DNA of 8,638 nt from a virus. Lineage: Duplodnaviria; Heunggongvirae; Uroviricota; Caudoviricetes. Below, piece by piece: positions 1 through 8,638 of the stretch. Numbering within the stretch: the stretch's first letter is position 1; every line of letters starts with the position of its first letter. Under the pieces are notes generated by a model that made no database searches, was not told where the DNA came from, and saw only the letters and a program-made list of their open reading frames with translations. Location: positions 1-8,638 of IMG/VR virus record IMGVR_UViG_2675903606_000008; one strand, written 5' to 3'. The translations under genes and the position numbers were made by a program.

Positions 1-1157
1 TCTTCCAGGATATCTTTTTCCGGTGTATGTCGTGCAGCAGTGAGAGTTTCCTTGCTGGGGTTCTCGTGATCAGTCTCCGTTAAGTAGGCGTTGATATACC
101 CCTGAAGGCGTCCCGGGTAGTGATAAAACTCAGGGTGAGCGCTCCGGATAAGTGCAAAAATAGCGGCGCGGGAATAGTCCAGAATACCCGGGGTTGCGCG
201 AAGTGCTGCGGACCATTCTTTGAACGGACTTTCTCTTTTCAGGACGATTTCTTTTGCGCGACGATAAACGCTGCCCGGAATTTCATAAATATTAAAATCC
301 ATCGGAAGTGTGGCTGCTGCAATCTCCACATCCAGCGTATCGAAGGTGTGTACTAAATTCGGATTGCGATCGGTTTTGTTCCCGCCACCGGCATTTGCAC
401 CGGAAGCCGTACGGGTGATACGCGAAACACGATTTCCTTTCATCCACTCTTTTGTCAGCAGACCCCGATCAGTGTAGTCAGCGTCCAGGTATGCCTCGAA
501 AAAAGCAGTTATCAGTCCCAGGTCTGAATTACCGGGATTAGGGAAAACTTTGTCAGTGTCGCGTACCAGTTTGTGAAGGTCGCGAATCTCCAGCGGGTCG
601 AGCAGCTTTGTTTTGTGAGAAATGGCCAGGGCAGTAACAGCCGGCAGTTCTTCCGCCCGTGCTATATGTAATGCCTGAAGTTCTTCCCGTGCAACGTGCG
701 TTACTGGTTTTTCGCTGCCGTGTTGCGCAAGCCAGCGAATGGGCAGCTCCTGACCAGAAACAGGCAGGAGCATATTCTCCTCAATCTCCGTCATGTCTTC
801 GCCGTTGAGGTTGGTATTGTCAGTACTGGCTGGTTTCTCCTGCACGGAGGGAGAGGGCGCGATAAATACCATTGTAATGCCATCTTCCCCGCCTTTTTCG
901 TATCGGTTGCAGAATTCGGTATCAAACACGCCTTCAGGTGGAAGGTCATTCACAACGGGTAAATGGACGCGAACGGGTTTTTTAAAGTCGTCTTCATCAT
1001 AATCGTTGTCATCCATTGCGGTAATGCAGCGGGAGATGGCAACAGATAATTTTTTTGCTGTAGTCCAGTAAAAACCACCTTTAATTCCCAGACGTTTTCT
1101 GACTTTGTCATTTTTTGCTTCGCAATATAGCGCAAATTCTTCTTTATCAGTGCTCAT
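1..1157 (-). CDS. YdfE-like prophage protein, partial (C-terminus beyond window edge; at least 385 aa visible)
   Basis: Hand translation of the reverse strand from ATG (plus-strand CAT at 1155..1157) gives an uninterrupted frame to position 1, beginning [36 protein letters not shown]. It is absent from the supplied ORF track, probably because its stop codon lies outside the window. Position directly downstream of dicB-ydfD matches where ydfE lies in the K-12 Qin prophage; the call rests on synteny, not sequence recognition. Confidence 0.6.
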
Positions 1158-1249
1158 TGATAAACCTCATTACAGATTTAAGGGTGAACAAATCCCTGCC
1201 ATTGCTGGCATTTTTAATCCGTTGGTATGGTGTTAATATGGCTGGAGGG

Positions 1250-1438
1250 TTATCCAGCCGGTGTTTCGTTATTCAGGTACAGCGATACTTTTTTTACCGG
1301 GAGGCATTCACCAGAAATTTTTTGCTCGTCTCTTGCCTGGAGGCAGGATTCTTTACTGGCATAAATTCCGGTAATCACATTCTGTGATTCACCCGTTATA
1401 AGAAAAACCGTCATCATCAGTGCAAATGCTGAAGTCAT
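1250..1438 (-). CDS. ydfD: YdfD-family small lysis protein (62 aa, N-terminal hydrophobic segment)
   Basis: Track ORF 1250..1438 minus, MTSAFALMMTVFLITGESQNV...EQKISGECLPVKKV...ETPAG. It matches my memory of E. coli YdfD in length, hydrophobic N-terminus and the EQKI.G.C.PV.KV motif. Its ATG overlaps the dicB stop in an ATGA arrangement (1435..1438). Confidence 0.75.
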   Translation of the reverse strand: MTSAFALMMTVFLITGESQNVITGIYASKESCLQARDEQKISGECLPVKKVSLYLNNETPAG

Positions 1439-1623
1439 TGACGTTCTCCGAAAATACCAAGTTCAAGAAGAGCAATTCGGGAAAGTATGGAATTATCATT
1501 GAGCAGATAAGGCTCATATTTCCTCATGTTAATGGCATCTTCAGTAAACTCCCGGTTACTGAGCAGAACACCAATATCAAAACAACCTTCAGACGTATTA
1601 ACGTTTGGTAATAACGTTTCCAT
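1435..1623 (-). CDS. dicB: DicB cell-division inhibitor (62 aa)
   Basis: Internal Met of track ORF 1435..1728 gives METLLPNVNTSEGCFDIGVLLSNREFTEDAINMRKYEPYLLNDNSILSRIALLELGIFGERQ. The N-terminal 30 residues are near-identical to DicB as I recall it (MKTLLPNVNTSEGCFEIGV...FTEDAIN.RK). A GAGGA Shine-Dalgarno lies 7 nt upstream of the ATG at 1621..1623. Confidence 0.85.
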   Translation of the reverse strand: METLLPNVNTSEGCFDIGVLLSNREFTEDAINMRKYEPYLLNDNSILSRIALLELGIFGERQ

Positions 1624-1792
1624 TATCGCGTCCTCAACAATGAATTTTGTGATGCAGTGCCTGGTGCCTCCAGGTGACGTTAACCAGTTAACAATTAACG
1701 CCGGATACAGAGAATCCACCCATAACACTGTTTTTGGTTTTAACTGTTCCGCGTGCGCTTAGCCGCATTCACCGCATCACAAAATTCACTTT

Positions 1793-1835
1793 AAAAAGGG
1801 CGGCAGAGCAGCCACGGAGTAAAACTGATACCGCC
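1793..1835 (-). terminator. Intrinsic terminator-like hairpin forming the DicF 3' end (GGCGG...CCGCC stem plus U-tract)
   Basis: On the minus strand GGCGG (plus 1831..1835) can pair with CCGCC (plus 1799..1803), with additional internal pairing and a following TTTTT (plus 1793..1797). dicB downstream must be expressed by readthrough or processing. Confidence 0.5.
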
Positions 1836-1850
1836 AAACGTCACCAGAAA
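1798..1850 (-). ncRNA. dicF: DicF small regulatory RNA (53 nt; known antisense regulator of ftsZ and other mRNAs)
   Basis: The reverse complement of 1798..1850 is TTTCTGGTGACGTTTGGCGGTATCAGTTTTACTCCGTGGCTGCTCTGCCGCCC, essentially identical to the E. coli DicF sequence as I remember it, followed by a T5 tract. It lies in the expected position between the upstream genes and dicB. Confidence 0.85.
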
Positions 1851-2187
1851 ATTGATAACAGAGGGCGTTGCAGCGGGGTTGTCACTTAAGCGTATGGTCA
1901 ACCTGACAACCCGGTGTCCTCAATGGGGAAGGAATAACCCCGCCATACTTACCGCCGCGCCATTTCGCGGAGTGCCACAACCGGAAGCGCACGTTCGAAG
2001 AAATCTAACGACAAGCCTTCTAAGGGAAAGAGCTTCGCCGTACGCTTTCGCGTTATGCACTGACTTTTCAGGGAAATATCCTTTCAGTAAACTGTCAGTA
2101 CCGGATTCTTATCCGTGTCCGGCGCACGACCACACGTGACAGCGTGTTGGTCTCCATTTTTAACCCAGAACCTCAATGGAGGATAAA

Positions 2188-2397
2188 ATGCCAAACAAAA
2201 AAAGAAATCCGCTTATTGAAAAACAGATTGAATGCCTGGTAAATCAACTCAGGCAATCAGGGTTATTAAAAACTCATTCAGAGTTGAGGCTCACAGAATC
2301 AGCATTCGACGATAAATTAAATAATGTCCTTTATAATGGCATTATTGATTTTAATCGTTCTGTTGGTCGCCGCGGCCCTGCTGGTGTTTCCTTATAA
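2188..2397 (+). CDS. Hypothetical small protein (69 aa), convergent with the 216-aa gene; coding status uncertain
   Basis: Track ORF 2176..2397; the second ATG at 2188 is preceded by GGAGGA (2178..2183). The stretch is AT-rich (roughly 35% GC by hand count over about 150 nt). Product MPNKKRNPLIEKQIECLVNQLRQSGLLKTHSELRLTESAFDDKLNNVLYNG... is protein-like, with no family recognised. Its stop TAA (2395..2397) abuts the minus-strand stop at 2398..2400. Confidence 0.35.
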   Translation: MPNKKRNPLIEKQIECLVNQLRQSGLLKTHSELRLTESAFDDKLNNVLYNGIIDFNRSVGRRGPAGVSL

Positions 2398-3048
2398 TTA
2401 CCAGTCAATCCAGAGTGGACCGTGTTCAGCGTAAATATAACTGTACACATCCAGATTATATTTGTGGTCTGTTAAGAACAGGCTGCAAATACATGCCGAA
2501 GCTTCCAGTGCAGCGGCTCTGTTACTGAATAACCATGTAGCAACATTCCAGCGTTTTTCTGCATCCCAGTCTTTCTCAAGGCCTGATACCATGAAGAAAC
2601 CGTTAGTGTTGCCATCAAATAATTCTGTTTCCAAATTTTTAAGCAATGCCTGATGGACTCTTGCCAGGTATTCCGCCGGAATTTCGCCACGAATTCTGAT
2701 GAGATTGTCATAAACAAACATGTTCCCCGCATATGGCGATTTTTCTTTCTTGTTTTTTAAACCAGCATCATGAGCAAACTGATCAATTTCTTCTTCCGTT
2801 GGTTTCGTATTGATGTTTTGCGCTGTCGTTTCTGCAATTTTATTTGCCACACTCTCTGAGTCGTGTTTATTTATAGACGCACAGAAATACAATCCGGTAA
2901 ACGCATCGCGCACATTACGAGCCATATTATCAGTGTCTTTTTTCGTTACCGATTCCAATTCAAGTTCGTTCAGACGATGACGAAGTGTGTGTGCTGCAAT
3001 CTCCTGGATTGAAGGAGGTAAATCTTTAAATTCCATCGTCAACCTCAT
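2398..3048 (-). CDS. Hypothetical protein (216 aa), accessory gene in the dicB operon at the position of ydfB/ydfC
   Basis: Track ORF 2398..3048 minus. Its ATG overlaps the ydfA stop as ATGA (3046..3050), which suggests translational coupling. An alternative start is M5 (MEFKDLPPSIQ, plus-strand CAT 3034..3036). It is more AT-rich than the flanking prophage genes. I recognise no family or catalytic motif. Confidence 0.7.
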   Translation of the reverse strand: MRLTMEFKDLPPSIQEIAAHTLRHRLNELELESVTKKDTDNMARNVRDAFTGLYFCASINKHDSESVANKIAETTAQNINTKPTEEEIDQFAHDAGLKNKKEKSPYAGNMFVYDNLIRIRGEIPAEYLARVHQALLKNLETELFDGNTNGFFMVSGLEKDWDAEKRWNVATWLFSNRAAALEASACICSLFLTDHKYNLDVYSYIYAEHGPLWIDW

Positions 3049-3200
3049 CAGTCAGTGTTTCTGGCTAACCAGCGACGCGCGCCAGCTTCAGTTTTAAACG
3101 TTTTGCTTCTGGTATACGTCATCGCGGTAAACGTGCCGTCCTGATTGGGAAACACGCCACATACCAGAGATTCGTTGTTGCCAAGATCGATAGTATCCAT
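3048..3200 (-). CDS. ydfA: YdfA-family small protein (50 aa), first gene of the dicB operon
   Basis: Internal start of track ORF 3048..3278 gives MDTIDLGNNESLVCGVFPNQDGTFTAMTYTRSKTFKTEAGARRWLARNTD, which closely matches E. coli YdfA as I recall it. GAGG lies 6 nt upstream of the ATG at 3198..3200. Confidence 0.8.
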   Translation of the reverse strand: MDTIDLGNNESLVCGVFPNQDGTFTAMTYTRSKTFKTEAGARRWLARNTD

Positions 3201-3277
3201 GCTGACCTCATTTCCCCTTAACGCCGGGGTAGCGGAACTGTTTGCTGAGAACACCGTGCGGTGTCTTGATGCAAGCA

Positions 3278-3332
3278 AGATTAGCCATGACTAACAATTT
3301 GGTCAAGTATTTTTGTTTGCCATGACTAACAT
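3278..3332 (-). promoter_or_regulatory. Putative dicB-operon promoter (minus strand -35 TTGACC, 17-nt spacer, -10 TAATCT) flanked by two DicA-operator-like 20-mers
   Basis: On the minus strand: -35 TTGACC (plus 3301..3306), 17-nt spacer, -10 TAATCT (plus 3278..3283). Operator-like 20-mers at 3278..3297 (overlapping spacer and -10) and 3313..3332 resemble the palindrome in the dicA-dicC intergenic region. Confidence 0.55.
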
Positions 3333-3366
3333 TTTGGGCAACCAAAAAGATAACGCATTGATTGCG

Positions 3367-3774
3367 TTATCTTTTGTTTGTTCGTTGACGGGCTTTTAAT
3401 AACTCTTCAAAGAGTTTGTTGAAATTTTTTACTCGGGCGCGCATCTCGGTGAGCTGAGCATCCTGTTCTGATTCAGGCAATGCATTAAAAAGCTCAAGGA
3501 GCTCATGTTCTTTGGGGGATAGAGCAACTGGCTCCTCAATAGGTGGTGATGGTTGCTTGTCTTCATCGCCAAATAGAATCCATGTTGGCGAGCACTGCAG
3601 TACTTTGCTGAGGGCAAAAAGATTCTTTCCTGTAGGTTCGCTATCATCCCGCTCCCATTGTGAAACCGATACGTGAGAAATTTTCAGGACTTTAGCAAGA
3701 GACCTTTGGGTGTATTTGAGGTTTTTTCGGCGATATCTAATGCGTTCGCCAATGGTTAAATTTTTTGTATCCAT
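3367..3774 (-). CDS. dicA: DicA, CI-like HTH (XRE-family) repressor of the dicB operon (135 aa)
   Basis: Track ORF 3367..3774 minus, MDTKNLTIGERIRYRRKNLKYTQRSLAKVLKISHVSVSQWERDDSEPTGKNLFALSKVLQCSPTWILFGDEDKQ...NFNKLFEELLKARQRTNKR. This is near-identical over its full length to E. coli DicA as I recall it. It is divergently arranged with dicC. Confidence 0.9.
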   Translation of the reverse strand: MDTKNLTIGERIRYRRKNLKYTQRSLAKVLKISHVSVSQWERDDSEPTGKNLFALSKVLQCSPTWILFGDEDKQPSPPIEEPVALSPKEHELLELFNALPESEQDAQLTEMRARVKNFNKLFEELLKARQRTNKR

Positions 3775-3796
3775 AGTTAGCTAATGCTAAATCTTA

Positions 3797-3843
3797 TTGA
3801 CTATGTTTTTGTTAACATCTATTTTGTTAGTCATGGCTAACAA
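3797..3843 (+). promoter_or_regulatory. Putative dicC promoter (-35 TTGACT, 17-nt spacer, -10 TATTTT) with overlapping palindromic operator
   Basis: TTGACT at 3797..3802, 17-nt spacer, TATTTT at 3820..3825. The 20-bp operator TTGTTAGTCATGGCTAACAA (3824..3843) has perfect 7-bp inverted arms and starts within the -10 hexamer. The dicA promoter should lie in the same 83-bp intergenic region but I could not place it convincingly. Confidence 0.55.
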
Positions 3844-3857
3844 TCAAGGTGCTTTAA

Positions 3858-4088
3858 ATGCTTAAAACTGACGCACTTTTGTATTTCGGTTCAAAAACAA
3901 AACTTGCACAAGCTGCTGGTATTCGTTTGGCTTCGCTTTATAGCTGGAAAGGGGAGCTAGTACCTGAAGGTCGCGCGATGCGCCTGCAAGAGGCATCCGG
4001 CGGGGAACTTCAGTACGACCCCAAAGTTTATGACGAATATCGTAAGGCAAAGCGGGCGGGGCGGTTGAACAATGAAAATCACCCCTGA
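3858..4088 (+). CDS. dicC: DicC, Cro-like small regulator (76 aa)
   Basis: Track ORF 3858..4088 plus, MLKTDALLYFGSKTKLAQAAGIRLASLYSWKGELVPEGRAMRLQEASGGELQYDPKVYDEYRKAKRAGRLNNENHP. This is near-identical to E. coli DicC as I recall it and is divergent from dicA. Confidence 0.9.
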   Translation: MLKTDALLYFGSKTKLAQAAGIRLASLYSWKGELVPEGRAMRLQEASGGELQYDPKVYDEYRKAKRAGRLNNENHP

Positions 4089-4623
4089 ACAGGTTTGTGA
4101 GGCTCTGGATGCCTGGGTGTGCCGACCAGGAATGACACAGGAACAGGCGACGATATTAATCACGGAAGCATTCTGGGCTCTGAAAGAACGCCCGAACATC
4201 GATGTTCAACGCATCACGTTTAATGATGGCGAGGTTGATCAACGGGCACTGGGCGTTAACCGGGTGAAGATATTCGAACGCTGGAAAGCTATCGACACCA
4301 GGGATAAGCGGAAAAAATTCACGGCGCTGATTCCGGCAATTATGGAGGCTATCCGAATTAGTGATTTCAGGTTGTATCGTGAGATCAGTGATGGAAAAAG
4401 CATTACGTACATGATCGCCGGATTAAACAAAGAATATGGCGATGTGGTGGAGTCCGGGCTGCTTTTTGCGGATCCATCTGTTGTGGAACGTGAGACTGAC
4501 GAGCTTATAGAAAAAGCTATTGCTTTCAAGCATGCGTATCGTCAGCAGTATCAATATTACTTTGCAGATAAACAAATATCTGCCAGGGGTTCGTATGAGT
4601 ATCGATGCACTACGATGGGCTAA
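4072..4623 (+). CDS. YdaT-family protein (CII-like regulator, formerly annotated as toxin YdaT), 183 aa
   Basis: Track ORF 4072..4623. Its N-terminal half (MKITPEQVCEALDAWVCRPG...KIFERWKAIDTRDKRKKFTALIPAIMEAI) resembles Rac-prophage YdaT (MKIKHEHIRMAMNAWAHPDG...KIFRWVEKD...LLPAIEKAM). It occupies the cII position between the Cro-like and replication genes. Start overlaps the dicC 3' end by 17 nt. Confidence 0.7.
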   Translation: MKITPEQVCEALDAWVCRPGMTQEQATILITEAFWALKERPNIDVQRITFNDGEVDQRALGVNRVKIFERWKAIDTRDKRKKFTALIPAIMEAIRISDFRLYREISDGKSITYMIAGLNKEYGDVVESGLLFADPSVVERETDELIEKAIAFKHAYRQQYQYYFADKQISARGSYEYRCTTMG

Positions 4624-5635
4624 AAAGGTGAAAACCGGCAGTTCATCCAGTAAGTCTGTATTGACCTGGCTTGCTGATATGTGCGGTGCCGATTTGTGTG
4701 CATACCCGTCTGTATCTGCACTGGCAGAAGTAACGGAACTGAACAAAAAGACTGTGCAGGACAGCTTACGACACCTGATGGAGATTGGGTTAATTGTTGA
4801 TACCGGTGAGAGAAAAGGCAGAACAAAGCAAATTGTGGTGTACCGACTTATCGGTGTAGAAGAAAGTGTTGCCGAGCCTGAATACACCCAAAAACGGGTG
4901 TCTTTAAAGGTGGGTAAAATTGGTGCTGTTAATAAAAACAGTACCGAAAACGGTTATGTTTCAGCACAAAAGAGCCCCAAAAACGGAACTCTTTGTTGCA
5001 TGGAAAATAACCAAAGACACCCAAATTTTCCATCAAAGACACCCAAAAACGGATCACGGAACCCAAAGGAACCCAAAGATCTAAACCCCACACATAACGC
5101 ACGCGAGAGTGCTCCGATCAGTGAGCAGGAAGTTTTGTCGTTACAGGCAGCCCCCCATGTATTCCTGGATGGCCTGAGCGAACCCATCGGAAAATTTCCG
5201 ATGACCGATAGCTGGTATCCGTCACGGGATTTTCGACGACGGGCTGCGTTGTGGGGGATGGCTTTGCCGGAGACAGAATTTACACCTGCTGAACTTACCG
5301 CATTCCGGGACTACTGGGCAGCGGAGGGGAAAGTGTTTACGCAGATTCAGTGGGAGCAGAAATTCGCCCGTCACGTAAATCACGTCAGGGCGCAGGTTAA
5401 ACCAGTCAGCAAGGGGGTAAACCATGCAGCAGCACCAGGTGGCACCGCATCACGGGCAGTTCAGGAAATTCGGGCAGCACGTGAGCAGTGGGAACGTGAA
5501 AACGGATTTATCAGCGACGGAAACGGCCTGGAAGCTGTGGGAGCTCATGGGGGAGGTTTATTCGAACCGCTGGACCCAGAAGAACGGGGCCGCACCTTCG
5601 AAGCTCTGGATTGCACAGATTGGCGCGATGACTGA
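4595..5635 (+). CDS. Phage replication initiation protein (O-like functional analogue) with N-terminal winged-helix/HTH domain
   Basis: Track ORF 4520..5635. I prefer the ATG at 4595 (MSIDALRWAKKVKTG..., AGGGG 6 nt upstream). The N-terminus is a typical HTH replication-protein domain (SVLTWLADMCGADLCAYPSVSALAEVTELNKKTVQDSLRHLMEIGLI). A low-complexity, Pro/Lys/Asn-rich middle region is encoded by direct DNA repeats. The gene lies immediately upstream of a lambda P-like gene. Confidence 0.7.
   Translation: MSIDALRWAKKVKTGSSSSKSVLTWLADMCGADLCAYPSVSALAEVTELNKKTVQDSLRHLMEIGLIVDTGERKGRTKQIVVYRLIGVEESVAEPEYTQKRVSLKVGKIGAVNKNSTENGYVSAQKSPKNGTLCCMENNQRHPNFPSKTPKNGSRNPKEPKDLNPTHNARESAPISEQEVLSLQAAPHVFLDGLSEPIGKFPMTDSWYPSRDFRRRAALWGMALPETEFTPAELTAFRDYWAAEGKVFTQIQWEQKFARHVNHVRAQVKPVSKGVNHAAAPGGTASRAVQEIRAAREQWERENGFISDGNGLEAVGAHGGGLFEPLDPEERGRTFEALDCTDWRDD
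5011..5078. repeat. Iteron-like direct repeats inside the initiator gene (candidate replication origin)
   Basis: CAAAGACACCCAAA occurs at 5012..5025 and 5034..5047. Tandem GGAACCCAAAG / GAACCCAAAG occurs at 5058..5068 and 5069..5078. The ACCCAAA core therefore appears four times within about 60 bp, with AAAACGG motifs at 4947, 4979 and 5046 in an AT-richer flank. Confidence 0.4.
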
Positions 5636-6089
5636 GCAGCAAATCCGGCAGGTCTGCCGCCAGTGCATGGACCGCTGCCGGGCGGGTGAAACATGGCCTC
5701 CGGACCTGGCTGAGTTTGTGGCGCTGATTTCGGAAAGCGGGGCCAATCCATTTGGCCTGACGGTGGATGCTGTGATGGAGGAGTATCGCCGCTGGCGTAA
5801 TGAGTCCTGGCGATATAACGGAAGCGACAAATATCCGTGGCCTCAGCCTGTGCTGTATCACATTTGCCTCGAGATGCGTTCAAAGGGGATTGAACGCCAG
5901 ATGACCGAAGGGGAATTAAAACGGCTTGCAGAACGGCAGCTGACGAAATGGGCAAAGCATGTTAGTAACGGCCTGAGCGTTCCGCCAGTACGGCGACAAC
6001 TGGCGGCACCAAAACGCCCGTTGGGACCAACGCCAATTGAGTTGCTGAAACAGGAGTATGAACGCCGGAAAGCGGCTGGTTTTGTCTGA
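5424..6089 (+). CDS. Replication protein P-like (DnaB helicase loader), 221 aa
   Basis: Track ORF 5424..6089. Residues 45-221 align by eye to lambda P, for example MTEQQIRQVCRQCM with ITTMEQVNAGMRVA, TWPPDLAEFVALI with PFLPSPGQFVAWC, and YPWPQPVLYHICLEMRS...ELKRLAERQLTKW with YPWKSNAHYWLVTNLYQ...ELRRKAADELVHM. A strong SD (AAGGGGG) lies 7 nt upstream of the ATG at 5424. Confidence 0.75.
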   Translation: MQQHQVAPHHGQFRKFGQHVSSGNVKTDLSATETAWKLWELMGEVYSNRWTQKNGAAPSKLWIAQIGAMTEQQIRQVCRQCMDRCRAGETWPPDLAEFVALISESGANPFGLTVDAVMEEYRRWRNESWRYNGSDKYPWPQPVLYHICLEMRSKGIERQMTEGELKRLAERQLTKWAKHVSNGLSVPPVRRQLAAPKRPLGPTPIELLKQEYERRKAAGFV

Positions 6090-6123
6090 TTTGAGAAGTA
6101 ATTTTTATCCGGAGGAAATTTTA

Positions 6124-6894
6124 ATGGGAACCGTATTGCATGCACTGAAAGCGATGGGTAAAGCCAATTCTGTTGAACTGGCGGCGCGGCTTGATATCAG
6201 CCGTGAAGAAGTTCTCAACGAACTGTGGGAACTCAAAAAAAATGGCGTTGTTGATAAAACGGGTCACACCTGGTTTCTGGCTGTCGAAGGTGAATCCGGG
6301 GTAACCGAAGGGCAGGCACTACAACCTGAAGCGCCGGATGTGGTAACCGAAGAGGTCGCTCCAAAAGTTAGCGCTGACATGATGATTGAGTTTATCGCTC
6401 AGGAGGGGGCTAAAACCTGTGAAGAAATAGCGGGTAAGTTCGGTGTCAGTACTCGCAAGGTTGCTTCCACGCTGGCGGTGGTAACCGCAACGGGGCGGCT
6501 GGCACGCGTTAATCAGAACGGTAGATTTCGTTACTGCATGCCGGGCGATAATTTACCAGCAGAGCCGAAAGCCGCGCTGGTAACGGAAAATGATGGTAAG
6601 GCCTTTCCTCAGCCAGCAGGTGCTGCGTTACCAGTCCGGGAAGCCGCAACACAGGAAGAAATTAAAACAGAAACTGTGGCGGACATTGTGCAGCCGTTGC
6701 CATCGTTTACCGAAACGCAAGCAGATGAGCTGATTTTTCCGTCCCTGCGCAGGGCAAACCTGGCGCTGCGCAGGGCGAAAAGTGATGTTCAGAAGTGGGA
6801 GCGAGTCTGCGCCGCGCTGCGGGAGCTGAACAAGCACCGGGATATTGTTCGACAGATTACTGATTCTTCCCGCCGTGTTGTATCGGAAAAGTGA
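6124..6894 (+). CDS. Prophage protein with two winged-helix/HTH-like segments (DUF1627-like, assignment from memory), 257 aa
   Basis: Track ORF 6058..6894. Preferred start is the ATG at 6124 (MGTVLHALKAMGK), with GGAGGA 7 nt upstream and after the P-like stop at 6089. Two segments resemble MarR-like winged helices: SVELAARLDISREEVLNELWELKKNGVV and CEEIAGKFGVSTRKVASTLAVVTATGRL. Confidence 0.6.
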   Translation: MGTVLHALKAMGKANSVELAARLDISREEVLNELWELKKNGVVDKTGHTWFLAVEGESGVTEGQALQPEAPDVVTEEVAPKVSADMMIEFIAQEGAKTCEEIAGKFGVSTRKVASTLAVVTATGRLARVNQNGRFRYCMPGDNLPAEPKAALVTENDGKAFPQPAGAALPVREAATQEEIKTETVADIVQPLPSFTETQADELIFPSLRRANLALRRAKSDVQKWERVCAALRELNKHRDIVRQITDSSRRVVSEK

Positions 6895-6909
6895 TTGCCG
6901 GAGGCGCTT

Positions 6910-7302
6910 ATGGCAAAAGTATTTACACCAGAAGAGCGGGAAGAAGTGAAGGCGCGCATTGTGGAATTCGTGCGCCTGAGCGGACGAGAAACTTTTCGAC
7001 AACTGGCAGATAAAACGGGTGTCAGTAAGACCGCTATTCGTCGTTTATCTGGTGCGCTTGCGGCCAGTGGTGATGTCTGGCTCTCTGGTTGCGGGGTATT
7101 TCTATCAGAGCAGGCGTATCGCGTATGGCGCAAGACACCGGAGAAGGCTGCTGACCCGACACTGATTCGAAAGTTACCTGACGGAGAAATACGTCGTTAC
7201 AACAGACGGCAGAACATAATTTGTCGTGAGTGCCGCCAGAGCGAAGTTATGCAGCGTGTGCTGGCGTTCTATCGGGGAAACTTTCAGGAGGTGATGGAGT
7301 GA
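6910..7302 (+). CDS. Small HTH-containing prophage protein (DUF977-like, assignment from memory), 130 aa
   Basis: Track ORF 6895..7302. Preferred start is the ATG at 6910 (MAKVFTPEE), with GGAGG upstream at 6899..6903. HTH-like segment FRQLADKTGVSKTAIRRLSGALAASG. A CxxC pair (IICRECRQ) lies near the C-terminus. Confidence 0.55.
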   Translation: MAKVFTPEEREEVKARIVEFVRLSGRETFRQLADKTGVSKTAIRRLSGALAASGDVWLSGCGVFLSEQAYRVWRKTPEKAADPTLIRKLPDGEIRRYNRRQNIICRECRQSEVMQRVLAFYRGNFQEVME

Positions 7303-7595
7303 GGGTGAGAGTTTATATTGCCGGTCCAATGACGGGATATGAAAATTTCAACCGTGAGGCATTTCACAAGGTGGAAGAGGAACTGAAACGGGAAGGGCAT
7401 ACCGTCTTAAACCCGGCAGTACTTCCGGACGGGCTGACACAGCCGCACTACATGGATATTTGCATGGCAATGATTCGTTGTGTGGATGCGATTTACATGC
7501 TGAATGGCTGGCAGCGGTCAGCGGGCGCTAAGGCAGAGCTGGCACTGGCGGAGAAACTGGGGCATGCGGTGATTTATCAGGAGGTGGCTCAATGA
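7299..7595 (+). CDS. DUF4406 / nucleoside 2-deoxyribosyltransferase-like small protein (about 98 aa)
   Basis: Frame of track ORF 7230..7595. I prefer the GTG at 7299, with AGGAGG (7286..7291) 7 nt upstream and a GTGA overlap with the upstream stop. The N-terminal YIAGPMTG motif, the central NP motif and C-terminal D...IY.L.GW..S.GA..E...A are characteristic of the DUF4406 Rossmann-like family as I recall it. Confidence 0.65.
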   Translation: MRVRVYIAGPMTGYENFNREAFHKVEEELKREGHTVLNPAVLPDGLTQPHYMDICMAMIRCVDAIYMLNGWQRSAGAKAELALAEKLGHAVIYQEVAQ

Positions 7596-8311
7596 GAGAG
7601 GTTAACTATGAGGCGCTTCGTGAAGCAGCAGAGAAAGCAACTAAAGGATGCTACATCGTAGGGCATACATCGGGCAATCAGCATGGGAATATAACAGGAG
7701 TTTTTGTTTGTCAAAAATGGAAAGGAGAACCCGGTGGCGTAATTGCAGAATGTCATGTTAACTGCCTGGTTGAAACAGATGCTCAGGCTTACGCAAACGC
7801 TGAATTTATTGCTGCCTTTAATCCAAATGTTGCGCTGGCACTACTGGATGAACGGGAAAGAAACCAGCAATACATCAAATCACGCGACCAGGAGAACGAG
7901 GAGATTGCGCTTACGGAAGGGAAGCTGCTAATCGAAAACGGCCGGCTTGTTGCCGATACGCTACGCCACTTAGCTGATAACGAAATCGACTCTGATTATT
8001 TTGCTATCACCTCAACGAATGAGAACGGTACTGAAATTGATCATGAGATGGCTATTACCGATTACGCACTGCAAGCTGCCGGAACTGTAGACGAATTGGT
8101 TGCGGCGTTGGAATCCGCAGAGAAGCGCATTGCAGAACTGGAAGCACGGGAAATATCGCTCCCAGAACGTAGCAGCATGCTTCATCGAACAGATTTTCAC
8201 GATGATTACCAAACGGTAATGGCATACAAAGTTTCTGAAGTCATCGCTGCAATCCGCGCCGCTGGCATTCGCATCAAAGGAGAGGAGCATGGAAATAAAA
8301 CCAGAAGATGA
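7592..8311 (+). CDS. Ead/Ea22-like family protein (239 aa)
   Basis: Track ORF 7592..8311. The N-terminal ALREAAEKATKG motif and a central coiled-coil-like segment (VDELVAALESAEKRIAELEARE) are typical of lambdoid Ea22-like proteins. The ATG overlaps the upstream stop as ATGA. Confidence 0.7.
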   Translation: MREVNYEALREAAEKATKGCYIVGHTSGNQHGNITGVFVCQKWKGEPGGVIAECHVNCLVETDAQAYANAEFIAAFNPNVALALLDERERNQQYIKSRDQENEEIALTEGKLLIENGRLVADTLRHLADNEIDSDYFAITSTNENGTEIDHEMAITDYALQAAGTVDELVAALESAEKRIAELEAREISLPERSSMLHRTDFHDDYQTVMAYKVSEVIAAIRAAGIRIKGEEHGNKTRR

Positions 8312-8621
8312 GTTAAGCAATATCGTTTTATTTCCGGTAAAAGAGGATGACCCACGTAATCAGGTTAATTTTCTCTATGAGCCATCGGAAAGACCATATT
8401 GCCATCACGCCTCTGTCCGGGTTGACGAAAAAGAGCGTCAGGTCCGCTGTAAAATCTGCGGTGCAGTTGTGGAGCCATTTGACTGGATGCTCTCTGTGGC
8501 GAAAAGAGAAACCAGACTGGCAGATGATGTAAGGATCTTGGGTAATGACTCCAACTTACTGATAGTGTTTTATGTTCAGATAATGCCCGATGACCTTGTC
8601 ATGCAGCTCCACCGATTTTGA
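8289..8621 (+). CDS. Hypothetical small protein with putative zinc-ribbon (CHH...CKIC), 110 aa
   Basis: Track ORF 8289..8621. GGAGAGGAG lies upstream of the ATG. Cys/His cluster PYCHHASVRVDEKERQVRCKICG. Overlaps the Ea22-like 3' end by 23 nt. No family recognised. Confidence 0.5.
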   Translation: MEIKPEDELSNIVLFPVKEDDPRNQVNFLYEPSERPYCHHASVRVDEKERQVRCKICGAVVEPFDWMLSVAKRETRLADDVRILGNDSNLLIVFYVQIMPDDLVMQLHRF

Positions 8622-8638
8622 GAACGACAGTGACTTCC

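Follow-up and report, generated by a model that had tools for sequence, protein, structure and literature searches.

A convergent two-gene accessory module in a hypervariable slot of the dicBF operon of Qin-like prophages

Variable accessory genes at fixed positions have been described in the defence hotspots of P2 and P4 prophages (Rousset et al. 2022, PMC9122126). In the dicBF operon, ydfA, ydfB and ydfC have been described as the promoter-proximal genes, and non-conserved genes were drawn as blanks only (PMC5069750). Here we analyse a DNA stretch of 8,638 nucleotides (nt), called the window below, which covers positions 1 to 8,638 of the IMG/VR virus record IMGVR_UViG_2675903606_000008 (Caudoviricetes) and contains the immunity and early-left region of a lambdoid prophage of the Qin-like type. 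Between ydfA and the dicF leader, at 2129-3056, it carries a cassette with a large gene, translated as part of the DicA-repressed dicBF operon, and a small gene that converges on it from the opposite strand. This cassette is an accessory module of two genes and occupies a slot of the early-left (dicBF) operon that is hypervariable among related prophages. On comparative grounds we tentatively favour a reading, possible rather than probable, in which the two genes form a cognate pair and a small protein made in the lysogen would restrain an effector of the early operon, following an effector-immunity logic.

The limits of the cassette were obtained by alignment and blastn against Escherichia coli K-12. 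Homology to the K-12 Qin prophage ends at about 3057, at the end of ydfA, the final gene shared with K-12, and starts again at 2128; therefore 2129-3056 substitutes for ydfB and ydfC. The cassette thus has the same place between ydfA and the dicF leader as the K-12 genes, and K-12 retains, beside ydfC, the first two helices of the leader described below. The two loci differ in that translations, DNA alignment and blastn detect no similarity to YdfB or YdfC in the cassette, and in that K-12 has neither the ribosome-binding site nor the small open reading frame (ORF). An earlier reading made from the letters alone (the sequence-only reading) had proposed an AT-rich cassette where K-12 carries ydfB and ydfC. 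The replacement of both genes holds for the window, but elsewhere displacement is not universal, as some loci hold ydfB, or ydfB and ydfC, alongside a module. The claim of a higher AT content is true for the immediate flanks, with a GC content of 0.407 in the cassette, 0.371 in the small ORF and 0.412 in the large ORF against 0.494 in ydfA and 0.523 in the dicF leader, but dicA (0.429) and dicB (0.381) are as AT-rich as the cassette. The small ORF therefore differs from its immediate flanks in base composition, as is characteristic of morons. Counting a genome as positive when at least 80% of the query was covered, the cassette is present in 566 of 5426 complete E. coli genomes (~10%), largely of enterohaemorrhagic E. 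coli (EHEC) serotypes, among them O157:H7, O26, O111 and O145. It is absent from 50,697 deposited phage genomes, where the sole match is to the N-terminal domain of the large protein, in phage Evi.

Judged by their substitution patterns, both genes are protein-coding and under purifying selection. The two ORFs of the sequence-only reading (2398..3048 on the minus strand and 2188..2397 on the plus strand) are present, and two further details of it are borne out: the genes meet stop against stop at 2397/2398, where the junction TTATAATTA (2392-2400) consists of a Leu codon and TAA of the small ORF followed by the reverse-complemented TAA of the large ORF, and a GGAGGA ribosome-binding site lies at 2178-2183, 5 nt before the ATG of the small gene at 2188. 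For the small gene, the ratio of nonsynonymous to synonymous substitution rates (dN/dS) between the window and one Salmonella and one Escherichia sp. copy is 0.19-0.26 in the coding frame. Of the five other frames, four give 0.79-3.7 (mostly above 1), while the mirror antisense frame, whose third codon positions coincide with those of the gene, gives 0.37-0.56. By chance, an ORF of at least 69 codons starting with ATG appears in 169 of 20000 shuffles of a 272-nt stretch; the frame-specific dN/dS is the stronger evidence and outweighs this count. The small protein matches PHROG 4274 over its full length (E=1.2e-51, profile 1-69/69; function unknown), and in RefSeq it is a hypothetical protein. 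It is hydrophilic with a net basic charge, has no transmembrane segment and shows the motifs QL..SGLLK, F..KL and a C-terminal RR.PAGV.L. AlphaFold2 models it as two helices with no hydrophobic span (predicted local distance difference test score, pLDDT, 57). In another frame, a 36-codon ORF (2324-2434, plus strand) overlaps the small gene at its 3' end as well as the stop codon of the large one and would encode a very hydrophobic peptide (MSFIMALLILIVLLVAAALLVFPYN...). It was considered as a type I toxin and ruled out; it has no ribosome-binding site and a dN/dS above 1 in its frame, and is therefore probably a by-product of the GRRGPAGV codons.

The large protein matches PHROG 2151 over its full length (E=1.3e-146, profile 1-212/212; function unknown). 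Its true start is likely the ATG at 3036, giving 212 amino acids (aa). This start is preferred because it has a GAGG at a distance of 7-10 nt upstream, the match to the PHROG profile sets in at residue 5 of the 216-aa version, RefSeq gives a hypothetical protein of 212 aa, and homologues in other contexts start with MEFKDLP. The sequence-only reading was accordingly right that the gene is real, but its 216-aa start (ATG at 3048) is dropped, and the ATGA overlap that it described with the ydfA stop (TGA, 3048-3050) is in fact TGATG, with one shared base at 3048.

Three modules make up the large protein: a helical N-terminal domain that is shared with other proteins, a linker and an alpha/beta C-terminal domain of 115 aa (N-domain and C-domain below). 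The N-domain is predicted to form a helical hairpin; its dN/dS is 0.34-0.48 for residues 1-55, and it is fused to at least eight unrelated C-termini across many proteins. PHROGs 1363, 9419, 6937 and 33007 match the large protein at residues 5-79 only. The linker varies in length, is under relaxed constraint and is modelled with low confidence. The C-domain is the most constrained part, with a dN/dS of 0.13-0.19 for residues 98-212 and the conserved motifs PY..M.VY..LI.I.G.IP..Y, FDG..NG.F and W.FS...AA.E. According to the AlphaFold2 model, which has low confidence (pLDDT 61), the N-terminal part is helical and the C-domain has a strand-strand-helix-strand-strand-helix-strand topology. Distant homologues from Salmonella and others (P0137, P0142, P0191, P0192) combine the C-domain with another N-terminus, in one case with an inserted helix-turn-helix (HTH). 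The family is small, 35 representatives among 1.84 billion proteins, and its informative relatives are all from Escherichia (E. coli, E. albertii, E. marmotae) or Salmonella.

The strongest argument for a cognate pair comes from the distribution of the two genes. In all seven C-domain lineages examined (the window, L003, L007, L010, L013, L141 and L143) a homologous convergent ORF of 64-69 aa lies at the 3' end of the large gene, abutting it or overlapping by 0-53 nt. Three of these lineages are the window type, Escherichia sp. E4742, where the module follows ydfB, and a Salmonella lineage with the shared N-domain. The other four, from Salmonella or metagenomes, lie in a Cox-type switch context without dicB, where integrase, HTH repressor, Cox-like and RecE-type exonuclease genes are present. 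The N-terminus of the large protein is different in four of the seven, and still the small-protein homologue beside each distant C-domain is 44-56% identical, with saturated synonymous sites. The genes are still neighbours where C-domain identity falls to 35-47%, and on two different prophage backbones; pairwise identities of the small protein and of the C-domain are correlated (r=0.83). Among 30 E. coli rows sampled across the ranking, some had the cassette complete or minus its N-domain end, others had just the N-domain or just the leader, and in none did the small gene or the C-domain occur alone. In locus L079 the large gene is frameshifted and the small ORF intact, and either partner can be inactivated alone. 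Two Salmonella loci (L003/L004) carry two tandem modules, at 5001-5813 and 5979-6499, each composed of an N-domain gene, a small ORF converging on it and a leader copy of its own.

The position itself is a rapid-turnover accessory slot, in agreement with the earlier suggestion that the DicA-controlled early operon has an insertion point here. Where the N-domain is joined to other C-termini, the large gene again faces a convergent small ORF, which has no relation to the 69-aa protein. When the window is compared with L014 by blastn, DNA homology runs from ydfA to about codon 49 of the large gene (~2888) and returns 12 nt inside the small ORF (2199). The comparison of gene content across Qin-like prophages that the sequence-only reading had proposed gave at least 12 unrelated families of small ORFs at the slot. 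It was done with the motif of the first leader hairpin, which occurs 143 times in IMG/VR viral contigs and the loci of this analysis; about 60 times a ribosome-binding site and a small ORF of 57-101 aa come next, and about 35 occurrences resemble K-12 in that ydfC borders on helices 1-2 and a small ORF is lacking. The small-ORF alleles that share the leader were taken from the IMG/VR loci L021-L140, for example L029, L032, L049, L080, L096, L105 and L107. One of them, the 94-aa allele of L105 (MAKFTVRIELRD...), reaches the cut-off of the type V antitoxin family GhoS in Pfam (PF11080, E=2.8e-4, 21.2 bits vs a cut-off of 21), and a 101-aa allele belongs to the same PHROG, 8894. The remaining alleles match PHROGs of unknown function only, or nothing, and the 69-aa protein of the window has no Pfam match to GhoS. 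The fast turnover fits a role in phage-phage or phage-host conflict. The shared N-domain, the conserved structured leader and the hypervariability of the whole position were all absent from the sequence-only reading.

The leader of the small gene, ~90 nt long, consists of a near-invariant hairpin (helix 1), a second helix with at least four different sequence versions, and a third that contains the Shine-Dalgarno sequence, see Table 1. It precedes every small-ORF allele, for example in L003, L007, L010, L013, L016, L019, L141 and numerous IMG/VR loci. Its covariance model gives 93 matches, including the window at 2098-2196 with 100.9 bits. Standard pairs fill 81.9% of the paired cells compared with 75.3% after shuffling, and the covariation is 0.120 vs 0.043 in shuffled alignments; none of 500 shuffles was as high, and slid controls stayed at or below 0.058. 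In helix 3, four of the six pairs have changes on both sides, and these are compensatory (at one pair, for instance, AU 24 and UA 22). This comparative evidence shows that helix 3 would sequester the ribosome-binding site of the small gene. The ribosome-binding site and the start codon are kept in all small-ORF alleles. Minimum free energy did not discriminate between the strands, but the counts of U-G pairs did. Helix 1 has two near-invariant U-G pairs, at which the opposite strand would have A-C mismatches, and this points to the sense (plus) strand of the small gene as the functional RNA. The hairpin at 2128-2152 had also been considered as a plus-strand terminator; this was ruled out, as a gap separates the stem from the T-run and the hairpin corresponds to helix 2 of the leader.

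That the small gene has its own promoter is plausible. The putative promoter (TTTTCA, a 17-nt spacer and TAAACT) would start transcription at about 2099-2101, at the base of helix 1. In at least eight unrelated upstream contexts, helix 1 is preceded at 6-8 nt by a -10-like hexamer, in many cases with an extended TG; this is comparative support and not proof. The scan called a promoter at 2160-2189, whose -10 overlaps the ATG; for this reason it was ruled out as that of the small gene.

If the genes are a cognate pair, the following order of events may be proposed. In the lysogen, the small gene would be transcribed from its own promoter, while DicA would keep the operon, and hence the large gene, off. 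The small protein would bind or otherwise neutralise the C-domain of a large protein that either leaks from the resident prophage or is produced by a superinfecting relative. Once the operon is derepressed, convergent transcription across the leader and the small gene would silence the small gene, and the large protein could act. Convergent transcription may in this way make the lysogenic and the derepressed states of expression mutually exclusive.

The conserved N-terminus, the swappable C-terminus and the neighbouring small gene that changes with it resemble the architecture of effector-immunity systems. The co-conservation in seven of seven lineages despite the turnover of the slot is the reason why the cognate pair is favoured. 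The same facts can be looked at differently, as independent accessory genes at a shared recombination hotspot that occur together since there is no DNA between them. We regard this as a serious if doubtful alternative, in which the small gene would be a moron expressed in the lysogen (for superinfection exclusion, defence or host modulation) and the large gene would encode an early lytic accessory protein, unrelated to it, whose C-terminus is modular. The sieB gene of lambda, P22 and Rac, which lies inside the early-left operon and is expressed from the prophage, is a parallel for such a small gene. Several observations weigh against a pair, most of them in favour of independence. The zero intergenic distance could by itself keep the genes together; one leader precedes at least 12 unrelated families; in L091 compared with L029 the small ORF is replaced while the C-terminus of the large gene is unchanged; L105 and L049 have the leader and a small ORF without any N-domain gene, and in loci of this type they adjoin ydfA or an HTH gene; and K-12-type loci retain helices 1-2 without a small ORF. 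Moreover, in two Salmonella assemblies (L005/L006, 5604-5813) the small gene is frameshifted and the large gene intact, which argues against strict dependence in the repressed state. The putative promoter is a weak match to the consensus (8/12 positions, below the scan threshold), and the scan detected no plus-strand terminator-like site downstream of 2397. Because of the spacing, the swap, the loci without an N-domain gene and the frameshifts, independence retains considerable weight; it is set against the finding that the C-domain and this one small family remain neighbours in every lineage although small ORFs turn over at the slot.

A classical toxin-antitoxin addiction module or an abortive-infection defence, which is close to what the sequence-only reading had in mind when it proposed an exclusion, defence or toxin-antitoxin-like module, appears improbable. 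The arrangement as a two-gene unit with one small partner, in a hotspot of the immunity region of a prophage, would suit it, as would the GhoS hit of the L105 allele and the relBE genes that lie nearby in another Qin-like prophage. However, the genes are convergent and not co-transcribed, the putative toxin is located in a repressed lytic operon, the small gene is lost in L005/L006 while the large one is intact, and neither window protein matches PADLOC, Pfam or NCBIfam. What survives of the proposal is a genuine, uncharacterised and conserved pair. It is also very unlikely that the plus-strand unit acts in cis or as RNA, tuning read-through and processing of the operon towards dicF and dicB, with the 69-aa product incidental. 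The leader is conserved even in K-12, where there is no small ORF, and a minus-strand transcript crosses the small gene and the leader in antisense before dicF, both as this explanation would have it; yet the amino-acid sequence of the small gene is under purifying selection, its protein motifs are kept at 44-56% identity when synonymous sites are saturated, and its translation signals are conserved across alleles. Strongly disfavoured is the idea of a small ORF that arose by chance or through annotation, with the large gene as the only real one. The ORF is indeed short, has no family annotation and is of a length that shuffling sometimes reproduces, but its low dN/dS is specific to its own frame, its ribosome-binding site is conserved, and it has stayed intact in lineages of Escherichia and Salmonella whose synonymous sites mostly differ.

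The cognate-pair reading can be extended to the whole slot. The leader and its small ORFs could then be a general second layer of immunity, at the protein level, in prophages of the Qin/Rac type and those with a Cox switch, with each small protein neutralising a matching C-terminal effector domain; we think this unlikely. The effector would be an early protein of superinfecting relatives or the prophage's own leakage, cognate pairs would be driven to diversify, resulting in an intracellular polymorphic effector-immunity system within phage genomes, and the leader that sequesters the ribosome-binding site would, together with convergent transcription, serve as the lysogenic/lytic switch.

To place the proteins, we searched families, folds and the literature. 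There was no significant match in Pfam, NCBIfam, PADLOC or the sequences of the PDB for either protein, nor for profiles of the C-domain and of the small family, and fold searches with the predicted models of both proteins gave nothing significant. This agrees with the earlier statement that the large protein has no recognised motif. The check for defence systems that had been suggested came out negative, with neither window protein matched by the component models of PADLOC-DB 2.0. No recognised toxin or antitoxin superfamily was detected for either protein in any of these searches, and Pfam and NCBIfam contain no toxin domain or trafficking/secretion domain for them. A collection of 5.8 billion proteins and the 1.84 billion representatives yielded relatives from Escherichia and Salmonella only, none of them annotated. 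The searchable literature has no description of these proteins, the leader or the slot, all of which are previously undescribed. HnrS, a small RNA of EHEC prophages, is unrelated and located in late genes.

Around the cassette, the plus strand of the window has dicC and ydaT-type genes, and the minus strand has dicA, ydfA, the large ORF, DicF, dicB, a DUF1482 (ydfD-type) gene and the 5' part of a RecE-family exonuclease gene, Table 1. No long ORF is listed at 1-1260 because the exonuclease gene runs past the left end of the window. Apart from DicF, the Rfam matches within 1850-3100 are weak and represent noise. A minus-strand transcript has to traverse the leader and the 210 nt of the small gene in antisense to reach dicF. 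The DicB protein of the window (1435-1623, minus strand) is close to K-12 DicB over its first ~30 residues, and its C-terminal half is fully diverged (...NMRKYEPYLLNDNSILSRIALLELGIFGERQ). Upstream of ydfA, the stretch 3345-3375 contains a perfect 13-bp inverted repeat (AAAAGATAACGCA TTGAT TGCGTTATCTTTT) that overlaps dicA at its 3' end; it might serve as a terminator or, near the promoter of the operon, as an operator-like site.

Table 1. Features of the cassette and its surroundings, in positions of the window.
Feature	Position	Strand	Basis or remark
Large gene, 212 aa, WP_000394548.1, PHROG 2151, 'Ybl81' in some records	2398..3036	-	ORF list, PHROG, RefSeq, homologues
N-terminal domain, aa 1-55 (MEFKDLPxxIQxIAA...NMARNVRDAFTGLY)	2872..3036	-	PHROG matches, representative search, alignment, blastn breakpoint
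Linker, aa 56-97	2746..2871	-	dN/dS 0.41-0.64; pLDDT 43-62; alignment indels
C-terminal domain (115 aa), aa 98-212 and stop codon	2398..2745	-	dN/dS, distant homologues, AlphaFold2 model
Small gene, 69 aa, WP_001133037.1, PHROG 4274	2188..2397	+	ORF list, PHROG, RefSeq, dN/dS, homologues
Structured leader (~90 nt) of the small gene	2098..2187	+	Alignments, RNAalifold, covariance model
Leader helix 1, near-invariant hairpin	2098-2125	+	
Leader helix 2, at least four different sequence versions	2129-2151	+	
Leader helix 3, CTCCAT paired with ATGGAG	2152-2157 with 2176-2181	+	Contains Shine-Dalgarno GGAGG 2178-2182
Putative small-gene promoter, TTTTCA, 17-nt spacer, TAAACT (2088-2093)	2065..2093	+	Inferred
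dicA-type repressor gene	3367..3774	-	ORF list and RefSeq annotation; upstream of operon
ydfA (DUF1391, 51 aa)	3048..3203	-	Pfam PF07151, E=1.5e-29; K-12 alignment
DicF small RNA	1798..1849	-	Rfam RF00039, 75 bits; same operon, downstream
dicB (62 aa)	1435..1623	-	ORF list and RefSeq annotation; downstream in operon
RecE-family exonuclease gene, 5' part	1-1260	-	Extends past left end of window

The cassette is carried by about a tenth of the complete E. coli genomes and by major EHEC serotypes, and it sits in the operon that makes DicF and DicB, which are involved in cell division, metabolism, phage resistance and the regulation of EHEC virulence. The antisense unit may affect how much of the operon transcription reaches dicF and dicB. 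A cognate pair, if true, would be a new effector-immunity arrangement inside a phage early operon and would provide a handle on the 115-aa domain. Even if the genes are no pair, a common leader with at least 12 unrelated tiny genes is a compact and easily searchable accessory hotspot of prophages, and the slot would be a ready source of small proteins that can be screened for exclusion, defence and host-modulating activity.

Compared with known systems, the slot is like prophage morons and the P2/P4 hotspots in being a fixed site between conserved flanks that hosts many unrelated genes of a base composition unlike that of the immediate flanks. That the cargo is likely expressed while the prophage is repressed, and from the strand opposite to that of the early operon, is a further likeness to morons. 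It differs from the P2/P4 hotspots in that the cargo is a single ORF of 57-101 aa and not a multi-gene defence system, shares one leader that would sequester the ribosome-binding site, and matches no known defence model, and in that the boundary of the cassette extends into the 3' part of the neighbouring early gene. With type II toxin-antitoxin systems the module has in common that it is a two-gene unit with a small partner on a mobile element, but here the genes are convergent, there is no known toxin or antitoxin fold, and the candidate toxin is under a phage repressor.

Polymorphic effector-immunity systems also have a conserved N-terminal region with variable C-terminal domains. The covariation of the small gene with the C-domain in all seven lineages fits such a system, while the L091/L029 swap and the L105/L049 loci do not fit, and the large protein has no recognisable toxin, trafficking or secretion domain. 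The pore-forming colicin operons differ in that their immunity protein is an integral inner-membrane protein, whereas the 69-aa protein has no transmembrane segment, and here there is no secretion, translocation or lysis logic and no pore or nuclease domain. The likeness to them is in organisation only, where gene order and strands match: a repressor-controlled, inducible and modular effector, with a conserved N-terminal and a variable C-terminal part, is followed directly downstream, on the opposite strand, by a small, possibly cognate gene with putative constitutive expression signals of its own.

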